Assembly (NCBI GenBank): GCA_009837565.1
Contig: VXTH01000046.1
Location: 1-27,826, forward strand
Length of the DNA stretch: 27,826 nt
From: Chloroflexota bacterium
GTDB lineage: Bacteria > Chloroflexota > Dehalococcoidia > Bin125
Direction of reading: 5' to 3'
The translations under genes and the position numbers were made by a program. The number at the start of each line of letters is the position of its first letter. The first letter of the stretch is position 1. The notes under the pieces were generated by a model that was given only the letters and a program-made list of their open reading frames with translations, did not search any database and was not told where the DNA came from. Below, piece after piece: positions 25,202 through 27,646 of the stretch.

Positions 25202-27646
25202 ATGGCGCGGAGTCGGCGGCCAAGGTCACGATCGCGACGTCAACGCAAGAATCGGCCCAAGCGCCAAACAGTCTTCTTTGCATTTCCGTCCCAGCCTGAG
25301 AGCGTCGAGGAGTCGATAAATCTAGCCCTTACACACCTGAAGACAGCACCGCAGATCAAAGACACGGGGCTGAGATTCCGACCGTGGCCAGATATGTCGG
25401 TATCTGGTCGGCATCTCCTGGGTGAGATAACAGATCAGATTGACCGCAGCACGGTTGTTGCCTGCGATGTCACCTACACCAATGCGAACGTGGCATTCGA
25501 GCTCGGTTACGCGATTGGTAAGTTTAAGAGGGTGTGGCTATCTTTGGACACTTCAATCGCTAATGCCGCTCGCGACTTCAATCGTTCCTATCTCGGCCAC
25601 CTAGGCTTGGGATTCTCCCCCTACGAGAATCACCAAGAACTCGCTGTCTCTCTGCTGAAGGACGCTCCTTGGACCTCTCCGCAAGATGCTCTTCTAGGAG
25701 ACGCCTATAGAGAAAGGCGTCCCAGCTCGGAGCAAGCGACACTCCTCTACGTCATGCCGCCCATCAGCACTGACGCAGTAATCGCCGTCCGCGAAGAGAT
25801 TTCGGAGTCCATCTTTCGCCAACATGCGATCATCGATGATCCGCGTGAGTTCGCGAATCCTACGTTGGAGTGGTATGCCGACACAGTCTGCGATGCTGAT
25901 GCAGTACTCATTCACCTGTTGAGCGACAACCATCGCGATTCGGCCACACACAACACTCGGGCATCCTGGGTTGCCGGATTGGCATACGGCCTGAACAAAC
26001 CCGTCCTCATGCTCGCCCACACCACATATACATGTCCGACTGACTACCAGTCCATTCTTCAAGAACACGCAACGGCGGAGCAGGCTTCCCTGTTGTTTCA
26101 CGCCTGGCACCAATCGATCCATATCAGAGCGCGCCGGCCCCGACGCCCTGAATCCCGCTCCCCAGAAGCCTCTCAGCTGTTACAACTGCGCGACTTATCC
26201 TTGGGACAACCTGTTGCCGAGAACGAAAGGACCAGGCTGGATGAGTACTTTGTCGAAACAAGTGCCTTCTATGAGGCTCGGAGTGCCGACGTCTCAATCT
26301 TCGTCGGCCGTCGCGGGACAGGCAAGACAGCTTCCTTCGTCGCCCTCGCGGACGACTGTCGACGCGACCGGCGCAACCATGTTTGTACAGTGCAACCAGT
26401 TGGCTATGAGGTCGACGGCCTGATACATTTGCTATCCGAAGATTGGAAGTCTGCCGATCGAGGATTTCTCGTAGAGAGCCTCTGGAAGTTCCTGATCTAT
26501 AGCGAACTCGCGAAGAGCGTAACGGACTCGATTGCGGCACGCCCCCTACACAGCAGGCACACCGACGAGGAACAGGCACTAGTCGACTACGTGTCCCAGC
26601 GAAGCGATGTTCTTCTTTCTCCGTTCTCTCAGCGCTTGAATCGCGCGGTGGGAGAGCTGCGTGGCACCGGCGGCCTTGGTGACACTGAACTCCAACGGGC
26701 GCGGATTAGCGAGCACCTTCACATCGAGCATCTCGGACAGCTACGAAGGTTCCTAGGGTCTGCTCTGCACAACCTACACAGAGTGGTGATATTGGTTGAC
26801 AACCTGGATCATCAATGGCAGGCAGGCTCTGATACTCAAGTACTCTCCACATTGCTCCTTGGACTACTGCGAGTGACGCAGGACATAGTGAGTGACTTCC
26901 AGCGAGATCTTGAACAGCGCCGACGAGTCAACGTTGCGATGACGACCTTCATCAGGAGCGATATCTTCTCGCATCTAGAGCCCCTGGCCACCGAGCAGGA
27001 CAAGTGGCCTGTGCGGCGAATGACTTGGAATGATCCAGATCTGTTGATTCGCGTGATCGAAGAACGACTGTCGCATGCGGGCCAATCGTCGCTTGATGCC
27101 AATGAGATCTGGGACCAGGCATTCCCCGCCGATGTCGCCGGTAAGTCGCCGAAGCAGTTTATCATCGAGAACACGCTACCCCGTCCACGAGATGTCGTCT
27201 TCCTCGCGAAAGAAGCGGTCGCCGTTGGCGTGAATCGCAATGCTGAAACTGTGACCGAAGACGACATGCTCCTTGCACGGAAAAGGTACTCGAATTACGT
27301 ATTCGGTTCAATCTTGGCCGAGGATGACCCACAGCGGCTAATGATGGAGCCAATTCTCTATGAATTCGCCGGCTCGGAACGAGAGGTCGCCAAAGCAGAT
27401 GTGTTGTCTCGAATGAGATTGGCAGGCGTTCCAGACTCCGACGCCGAGTACTATGTTCTCTTACTCTGCGACGTGAACTTCTTCGGCATCCGAACGGCTT
27501 CCGGCTATACGTTCCCAGAGCATGAGAACGAGCGGAGCGTGCTTCTCCGATTGGCAGACAGATTGGCCGTTGAACACGACTGGGGAGATGTTTGGTTCAA
27601 GATACACCCGGCGTTTTATGACGTTCTGCAGATTGAGTCGGACTAG
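25202..27646 (+). CDS. Two NDT/TIR-like Rossmannoid domains fused to a P-loop ATPase (Sll1717/FunZ-like)
   Basis: AAGGAG RBS then ATG at 25202. Domain 1: VFFAFP...DVTYTNANVAFELGYAIG. Domain 2: LLYVMP...ADAVLIHL...NTRASWVAGLAYGLNKPVLMLA. ATPase: IFVGRRGTGKT, VILVDNLD, RPRDV. Confidence 0.78.
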   Translation: MARSRRPRSRSRRQRKNRPKRQTVFFAFPSQPESVEESINLALTHLKTAPQIKDTGLRFRPWPDMSVSGRHLLGEITDQIDRSTVVACDVTYTNANVAFELGYAIGKFKRVWLSLDTSIANAARDFNRSYLGHLGLGFSPYENHQELAVSLLKDAPWTSPQDALLGDAYRERRPSSEQATLLYVMPPISTDAVIAVREEISESIFRQHAIIDDPREFANPTLEWYADTVCDADAVLIHLLSDNHRDSATHNTRASWVAGLAYGLNKPVLMLAHTTYTCPTDYQSILQEHATAEQASLLFHAWHQSIHIRARRPRRPESRSPEASQLLQLRDLSLGQPVAENERTRLDEYFVETSAFYEARSADVSIFVGRRGTGKTASFVALADDCRRDRRNHVCTVQPVGYEVDGLIHLLSEDWKSADRGFLVESLWKFLIYSELAKSVTDSIAARPLHSRHTDEEQALVDYVSQRSDVLLSPFSQRLNRAVGELRGTGGLGDTELQRARISEHLHIEHLGQLRRFLGSALHNLHRVVILVDNLDHQWQAGSDTQVLSTLLLGLLRVTQDIVSDFQRDLEQRRRVNVAMTTFIRSDIFSHLEPLATEQDKWPVRRMTWNDPDLLIRVIEERLSHAGQSSLDANEIWDQAFPADVAGKSPKQFIIENTLPRPRDVVFLAKEAVAVGVNRNAETVTEDDMLLARKRYSNYVFGSILAEDDPQRLMMEPILYEFAGSEREVAKADVLSRMRLAGVPDSDAEYYVLLLCDVNFFGIRTASGYTFPEHENERSVLLRLADRLAVEHDWGDVWFKIHPAFYDVLQIESD

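Follow-up and report, generated by a model that had tools for sequence, protein, structure and literature searches.

A gene at positions 25202-27646 of the forward strand of contig VXTH01000046.1, from a Chloroflexota bacterium (Dehalococcoidia; Bin125; assembly GCA_009837565.1), encodes a protein of 814 amino acids in which two apparent alpha/beta domains of the TIR/NDT type (NDT, nucleoside 2-deoxyribosyltransferase) precede a P-loop ATPase. The question raised by this locus is whether such a protein could act alone as an antiviral defence system, as had been proposed in an earlier, sequence-only reading, and how it would then work. The window analysed here is the whole 27.8-kb contig (27,826 nucleotides), which belongs to a metagenome-assembled genome of 66% completeness. 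With moderate confidence, the gene product is read here as an ATPase-gated, horizontally mobile, single-gene anti-phage protein of N-glycosidase type.

The open reading frame (ORF) and all motif strings quoted in the sequence-only reading were present as described. The ORF is complete and is preceded by a Shine-Dalgarno sequence; an in-frame GTG at 25088 is a possible alternative start, and the homologues begin at the MAR... position. A protein identical to the 814-residue product exists on record. Since more than 400 full-length homologues were found and the N-terminal 335 residues as query recovered 936 clusters at 50% identity, the ORF is a real gene and no chance ORF. Its relatives are Dehalococcoidia/Chloroflexota, and the genome contains one copy. 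The guanine-plus-cytosine (GC) content of the gene is 55.5% vs 62.8% for the remaining contig, and at the start codon the local value drops from about 62.5% to about 55%. No tRNAs, promoters or terminators were found, a sigma-70 scan being of little value for this lineage. Conservation counts were made on 213 full-length members that are 24-100% identical to the candidate protein, and residues 1-335 were modelled with AlphaFold2 from an alignment of 41 homologues (predicted local distance difference test, pLDDT, 87.6; predicted template modelling score, pTM, 0.84). In this model, two alpha/beta domains are set apart from each other (about residues 22-160 and 180-306), and a disordered linker rich in Arg comes after them. 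The gene and its parts are laid out as follows.

25189-25194, plus strand: Shine-Dalgarno sequence AAGGAG, 7 nt before the ATG
25202-27646, plus strand: complete ORF of 814 amino acids, ATG at 25202, TAG at 27644-27646
25202-25264, plus strand: basic N-terminal tail, residues 1-21, 12 of 21 being Lys or Arg
25265-25696, plus strand: domain 1, residues 22-165, NDT/DNPH1/TIR-like alpha/beta domain, presumed N-glycosidase effector
25487-25513, plus strand: motif NVAFELGYA, residues 96-104, with the Glu100 codon GAG at 25499-25501
25727-26131, plus strand: domain 2, residues 176-310, apparent second TIR/NDT-type alpha/beta domain, without the Glu
25961-25990, plus strand: motif ASWVAGLAYG, residues 254-263, on the helix equivalent to the FELG helix, with Val257 opposite Glu100
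26132-26200, plus strand: Arg-rich linker, residues 311-333, pLDDT 51-67, with a conserved RRxRR
26201-27625, plus strand: Sll1717-family P-loop ATPase, residues 334-808, with AAA+ core, helical lid and C-terminal winged helix
26306-26329, plus strand: Walker A motif GRRGTGKT, with Lys375 in 212/213 members
26783-26809, plus strand: Walker B motif VVILVDNLD, with Asp533 in 213/213 and Asp536 in 212/213 members

The presumed effector is domain 1. When the family profile was compared with all PDB sequences, DNPH1/Rcl was the sole match (expectation, E, value 0.0012-0.004), and the profile alignment set NVaFELGYA against GVGYELGRA of DNPH1/Rcl, a YELG motif whose helix we take to bear the catalytic Glu. 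The glutamate of NDT/DNPH1-type enzymes attacks the bond joining the base to the sugar. Glu100 of the candidate protein is present in 213/213 members, Gly102 in 212, Asn96 in 211 and Phe99 in 210, and Asn94, Asp89 and Thr91 are, like Asn96, nearly invariant. The only enzyme family matched in a Pfam search of the N-terminal third was PF05014 (nucleoside 2-deoxyribosyltransferase; 18.6 bits, E 0.0022, residues 78-114). Because this score does not reach the gathering cut-off of 28.8 bits, the domain is termed NDT-like here and not a PF05014 member; a homologue encoded on a Leptospira plasmid just reaches the cut-off (28.8 bits). The TIR effector model of PADLOC gave a weak match (E 2.2e-4, 36 residues), which is centred, together with the PF05014 match, on residues 75-114. 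Neither the Pfam TIR families PF13676 and PF01582 (at E up to 1) nor PF13271 (DUF4062) were matched. In an Atlas shape search, which was the more discriminating test, the two-domain unit matched PF05014/PF11071 clusters at template modelling (TM) scores of 0.61-0.71 over 253-272 residues, while poorer matches were obtained to the TIR protein ThsB (TM 0.46) and, weakly and to domain 1, to a DUF4062 cluster (TM 0.38). Judged by these matches and by the conserved Glu, domain 1 is an NDT/DNPH1-like member of the wider TIR/NDT kind whose catalytic-type site is intact, in agreement with the earlier assignment of a catalytic Glu to this domain.

The matching PF05014/PF11071 Atlas clusters were themselves found to be stand-alone proteins of 269-353 amino acids (TM 0.61-0.71 by query and 0.62-0.87 by match). 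They have the whole two-domain shape, and therefore the pair of an NDT domain and its partner exists also without the ATPase.

For domain 2, a TIR/NDT-type fold without catalytic-type Glu is supported. Its neighbours by language-model features were solely TIR, CAP12-PCTIR, ThsB and NDT clusters (scores 0.82-0.89), which is a lead and not a proof, and its profile matched nothing among the PDB sequences (best E 1.2). The TIR/NDT folds that had been predicted are supported for both domains, by profile and shape matches for domain 1 and by fold and feature matches for domain 2. A profile-profile comparison of the two domains with hhalign was not significant (probability 0.2%) and aligned the motif helix alone, and this alignment was used for register only, not as proof of duplication. 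The register, which is the same in the profile-profile alignment and by the secondary-structure boundaries of the AlphaFold2 model, pairs Glu100 with Val257, Gly102 with Gly259 and Gly106 with Gly263. The sequence-only reading had placed an Ala at the position of the missing Glu; it was right that no acid is found there, but the equivalent residue by register is Val257 and not Ala258. Positions 256-258 are hydrophobic or small, with no acid among the five commonest residues per column, and an acid at positions 256-259 occurs in 0/41 aligned homologues.

The description of domain 2 as a duplicated 'pseudo' copy of domain 1 is not supported by sequence, given the hhalign result and the conservation of polar residues, which suggest a working role. 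Gly259 and Asp281 of domain 2 are present in 213 members each, Asn251 in 205, Asp213 in 202 and His238 in 192, and Tyr282 is nearly invariant. Because its own polar residues are so strongly conserved, domain 2 is not simply decayed; the pattern suggests that it functions as an interface, as half of an active site or as a ligand pocket. A predicted complex of two copies of the N-terminal pair (score 0.02) speaks neither for nor against self-association.

The last of these roles leads to an alternative that we consider unlikely, in which domain 2 is a ligand sensor and the binding of a nucleotide-derived signal or a phage metabolite, not recognition by the ATPase, switches domain 1 on. TIR/NDT-type folds commonly bind nucleotides, and the invariant or nearly invariant polar residues exceed what a decayed copy would retain, but a place in a shared active site or at the domain interface would explain these residues just as well. 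Moreover, no ligand-binding family was matched by sequence and no signal-making enzyme is conserved beside the gene.

The pairing of the two domains is not peculiar to the candidate protein. An ESM Atlas cluster labelled 'P-loop ATPase, Sll1717 family' (2182 members, 777 amino acids) has the same two-domain N-terminal unit (TM 0.75), and the tandem pair is the main architecture of the family. The impression of the earlier reading that this arrangement is uncharacterised holds as far as no description was found in the literature or in PADLOC, whereas within the family it is not unusual. PADLOC 2.0 has no model for the Sll1717 family, and a literature search on TIR-like tandem domains with a P-loop NTPase yielded reviews of fungal immunity only. 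In a sister subfamily of 830-840 amino acids the Glu is kept in domain 1 and none is found in domain 2. A domain swap was considered for three genomes of the class that matched domain 2 only, and was rejected since P0268 and P0269 still have a domain 1, diverged but with its Glu (NVLLEIGYA). These two sister-subfamily proteins (L087:1682-4171 and L089:1689-4208) additionally have an N-terminal extension that contains Cys (DRYC...C), and their C-terminal tail is basic. In P0252 the domain pair stands at the C-terminus of a 652-amino-acid product, which was apparently either truncated by the end of a contig or joined to an upstream frame when the gene was called.

The strongly basic N-terminus, a candidate nucleic-acid binder in the sequence-only reading, does exist and, with no alternative start ahead of the first strand of domain 1, is a real part of the protein. 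Because only 15/213 members have a comparable tail, it is a clade trait outside the core mechanism of the family.

In the preferred reading, that of an ATPase-gated effector, the switch would be the C-terminal module. The Sll1717-type ATPase that had been recognised in it was confirmed by NCBIfam NF047389 (249.3 bits, E 8.5e-74, cut-off 75), the whole 454-position model being matched (positions 1-453) by residues 334-808. NF047389 is an annotation label without assigned function, and its model spans the ATPase, not the effector pair; some of its members bear a different domain at the other end. The accompanying label FunZ could not be confirmed, as no relevant phage-defence paper was found for this name. 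The Walker A Lys, the Walker B Asp pair, Arg585/Asp587 and Arg663/Asp664 are each present in at least 211/213 members. The P-loop core carries a long helical insert in a model of residues 330-814 (pLDDT 85.7), where a helical lid and, at the C-terminus, a winged helix are also present. The following fold matches of the ATPase module, given with their scores, were obtained.

PAB2304 (328 residues aligned): 14.0
SSO1545: 13.5
Orc1/Cdc6: 13.4
NB-ARC part of the plant TIR-NLR WRR4A: 13.2
TnsC: 13.0
EfAvs5: 10.7

All six matches extend across nearly the entire module. Because they do so, and because the Walker residues and the putative sensor or finger residues are nearly invariant, the module is regarded as an intact switch-type AAA+/STAND-like NTPase, of an initiator-like or a STAND-like clade. 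The ATPase profile found matches at the P-loop level only among PDB sequences (E at least 0.05), and Pfam NACHT and NB-ARC were not matched. No repeat or sensor domain was found either, as the protein stops a few residues past the winged helix and matches no Pfam repeat family.

The Sll1717 ATPase was also observed at the N-terminus of proteins of 689-698 amino acids ('ATP-binding protein', 'HypX'; L083:5968-8061 and L085:4986-7052) from E. coli, Enterobacter and Citrobacter plasmids and from Klebsiella phage-plasmids. The C-terminal domain of about 220 amino acids in these proteins has no Pfam match and might serve as a different effector. Such an exchange of domains on one module is usual for defence proteins. 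Among phage genomes, the ATPase part alone matched two Klebsiella phage-plasmids, and no full-length copy was found.

A precedent for the action of the domain pair comes from a retron. The NDT-like effector of retron Ec86 needs its catalytic Glu106 and a Ser six residues before it, and its asymmetric NDT-NDT dimer, which has a composite site, is essential, adenine derivatives being depleted (bioRxiv 10.1101/2023.08.16.553469). Similarly, the candidate protein has a Glu on the equivalent helix and a polar residue six positions before (Ser100/Glu106 in Ec86, Asn94/Glu100 in the candidate), and both have NDT-like domains, Ec86 being an anti-phage effector which requires a pair of them. The two differ in that the Ec86 effector is a homodimer restrained by a reverse transcriptase and multicopy single-stranded DNA, whereas the candidate has a fused ATPase and two different domains per chain. 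No significant sequence match between the candidate and retron NDT-like toxins was found in the searches made.

In NDT and DNPH1 enzymes the active site becomes complete only with a second subunit. Because a single chain here combines a catalytic domain with a conserved non-catalytic partner, and because Asn94 lies six residues before Glu100, a model of gating and of a composite site is proposed. In the resting state the ATPase would keep the effector off. A phage cue, either protein or nucleic acid, would be met by the ATPase and its winged-helix part and would permit ATP-dependent oligomerisation, by which pairs of domain 1 and domain 2 would be arranged so that the composite active site is completed. 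Domain 2 would thereby play the second subunit that NDT, DNPH1 and the Ec86 effector require. Domain 1 would then hydrolyse an abundant nucleotide, which may be NAD+, ATP/dATP or (deoxy)nucleoside monophosphates, so that the pool is drained and the infection aborted.

The same architecture could also serve a nucleic-acid-directed glycosylase, in which domain 1 would strip bases from DNA or RNA and not drain the pool of free nucleotides. Such an enzyme would make use of an ATPase of the initiator clade (Orc1/Cdc6-, DnaA-, TnsC- or MuB-like AAA+ proteins) that uses its winged helix to load or polymerise on the invading DNA, and in the clade of the candidate protein the basic tail would aid DNA loading. 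We regard this as improbable.

The overall design assumed in the reading favoured here, free-nucleotide depletion by an ATPase-gated effector, has precedents. A nucleotide-cleaving head on a STAND/AAA+ switch is a well-known design (Avs, TIR-NLR, bNACHT), and NDT-like effectors are known from retrons. Like the STAND/NLR proteins (Avs, bNACHT, TIR-NLR), the candidate has a nucleotide-binding domain, a helical domain and a winged helix; unlike Avs (e.g. the SIR2-STAND protein Avs5), TIR-NLR/bNACHT and plant TIR-NLRs, it is without a C-terminal repeat or sensor part and its effector consists of two unlike domains. DNPH1/Rcl, the PF05014 enzymes and MilB are small housekeeping or biosynthetic homo-oligomers, whereas in the candidate the domain shares its chain with a second domain and an ATPase. 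DUF4062 TIR-like NADases (Swarozyc), whose TIR/NDT-related domain was recognised recently, have a conserved Glu, stand frequently beside STAND ATPases and are used in defence (bioRxiv 10.64898/2026.05.01.722283); domain 1 of the candidate differs from them in matching NDT-family clusters much better. DS-41 ('AAA2') is a validated single-gene anti-phage system of E. coli found with DefensePredictor (PMC13092281). The candidate resembles it in being a lone gene for an AAA-type ATPase; for DS-41 the defence activity is proven. The DS-41 model NF053860 was the only other NCBIfam match of the candidate and its relatives, with 46.3 bits in the candidate over the P-loop stretch only and 25-54 bits over the candidate and its relatives vs a cut-off of 370; the match of a Leptospira homologue covers model positions 7-379 of 448. 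Because these scores lie far under the cut-off, DS-41 is a distant cousin of the ATPase module from a different family; it is the closest validated relative. What is new, compared with all these systems, is the family itself, the fixed pair of an active and an inactive domain and the absence of a sensor domain.

The distribution of the gene was analysed in a species-representative genome set, in which relatives were found in 239 stretches; neighbourhoods were compared in 80 loci, with up to 10 kb of flank per side and 1.13 Mb of flanks in all. The hosts of the best 80 stretches were Chloroflexota, Acidobacteriota, Bacillota, Planctomycetota, others, and one Methanofastidiosum archaeon. Occurrence is patchy, with the gene in 9/222 good genomes of the class and in 1/11 other genomes of the genus. 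Plasmids of Bacillus mycoides, Rhodococcus, Leptolyngbya, Leptospira and rhizobia carry full-length copies, with TnpB, insertion sequence elements, MazEF and conjugation genes nearby. No conserved partner gene was found, as no neighbour family is common to more than 8/80 loci, and therefore the gene works alone or with unlinked factors; the single-gene character claimed for it is in line with this result.

The commonest neighbour was the R subunit of type I restriction systems, with HsdR in 8/80 loci and any type I restriction-modification gene in 9/80. HsdR density was about 7 per Mb of flank vs about 0.15 per Mb across the class (55 HSDR_N matches in 121 genomes), so that type I restriction genes adjoin the homologues roughly 30-45 times above the class background by this estimate; at least 5 independent HsdR adjacencies remained after allowing for related loci, still an enrichment of roughly 30-fold. 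Further neighbours were Hhe, PDC-S37/S54, type II restriction-modification genes, SNF2 helicases, transposases, resolvase and toxin-antitoxin genes. In the window, genes of a McrBC restriction system are found directly upstream, with a gap of 354 bp between McrC and the candidate gene.

21619-23640, plus strand: McrB, 673 amino acids, Pfam AAA_5 at E 7.5e-22
23579-24847, plus strand: McrC, Pfam McrBC at E 1.3e-48

McrBC was considered as part of the system and rejected, as a McrB relative lies near just 1/80 homologues. Taken together, the data support an accessory, horizontally mobile gene that is frequently found beside restriction genes, and the enrichment of defence genes around the homologues, which the sequence-only reading had listed as a check, is supported by the rough HsdR densities and the adjacent McrBC, while the patchy occurrence and the plasmid copies agree with a mobile gene. 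That the gene is instead a non-immune accessory of mobile elements, for plasmid or integrative conjugative element maintenance, competition between elements, or nucleotide salvage or regulation, is rather improbable, for although plasmid copies lie among conjugation, replication and toxin-antitoxin genes, the gene in the window is downstream of conjugation-type genes and many loci have housekeeping neighbours only, the combination of an effector with a switch ATPase, the patchy spread, the company of restriction genes and the domain swapping are typical of defence genes, and nothing ties the gene to a salvage pathway or to a conserved metabolic partner.

Several points weigh against an anti-phage, ATPase-gated N-glycosidase. 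The anti-phage function of the family is drawn from sequence, context and analogy, and it is by analogy that we infer the trigger, the substrate and the oligomerisation; no description of the Sll1717 family was found in the literature. The PF05014 score of the candidate lies below the cut-off (18.6 vs 28.8 bits), PADLOC yields a weak TIR match only (E 2e-4), and domains 1 and 2 are not detectably homologous by sequence. The HsdR enrichment is rough, with partly related loci, flanks from several phyla and a baseline from one class. Finally, many homologues are lone inserts among ordinary metabolic genes.

In several assemblies, one identical protein is such a lone insert, surrounded by metabolic genes. 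A strain-variable slot (L091:267-2286) about 6 kb upstream of an identical homologue holds, in one assembly, an AAA_15/AAA_21 ATPase and an HNH protein (a Septu-like pair), and in other assemblies a transposase.

Further genes of the window were annotated as side observations. The N-terminal domain of McrB, which is about 160 amino acids long and precedes the AAA_5 motor, matched the PADLOC candidate family PDC-S02 (E 1.9e-19) and may be an unusual DNA-reading domain. A block at 16000-21450 has a GC content of about 69% vs about 60% around it, and contains a gene for a TrwB/TraG-like coupling protein (17236-19791) and a gene with winged helix-turn-helix and Replic_Relax domains (19788-21446); the block resembles a portion of an integrative conjugative element. 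Both genes of the block have close relatives near the candidate-gene homologue in locus L013, and the coupling-protein gene alone in L022. At 8998-12432 on the minus strand a TPR-CHAT protein of 1144 amino acids is encoded (CHAT E 2.3e-44), and another CHAT protein adjoins one homologue. CHAT is a caspase-like protease typical of conflict systems. A JAB-ThiF(E1) fusion, matched by the PADLOC E1-E2 models at about 1e-13, adjoins a protein with helix-turn-helix and IrrE/M78 peptidase domains (6682-8058, plus strand, and 4632-6161, minus strand), the latter protein matching PADLOC RmrA (4.6e-53); the two may represent a defence module of ubiquitin-like conjugation together with its regulator. A HerA/DUF87-like ATPase of 735 amino acids (698-2905, minus strand) and a protein of the endonuclease/exonuclease/phosphatase fold just under the Pfam cut-off (13269-14150, minus strand) are conflict-type or mobile-element genes.

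Members of the family occur in Chloroflexota, Acidobacteriota, Bacillota, cyanobacteria, rhizobia and spirochaetes and in one archaeon at least, and the family is easily testable, since some hosts can be cultured and some copies are carried on plasmids (Bacillus mycoides, Fictibacillus, Salipaludibacillus). Its short ATPase without a separate sensor domain raises the question how so compact a protein recognises infection. If the proposed function is true, the family, which is large, would constitute a new antiviral system made of one protein, the role of NDT-type nucleotide glycosidases in immunity would be extended from retrons to ATPase-switched proteins, and the candidate would serve as a natural model, within one chain, of the asymmetric pair of effectors which TIR/NDT enzymes otherwise build between subunits.

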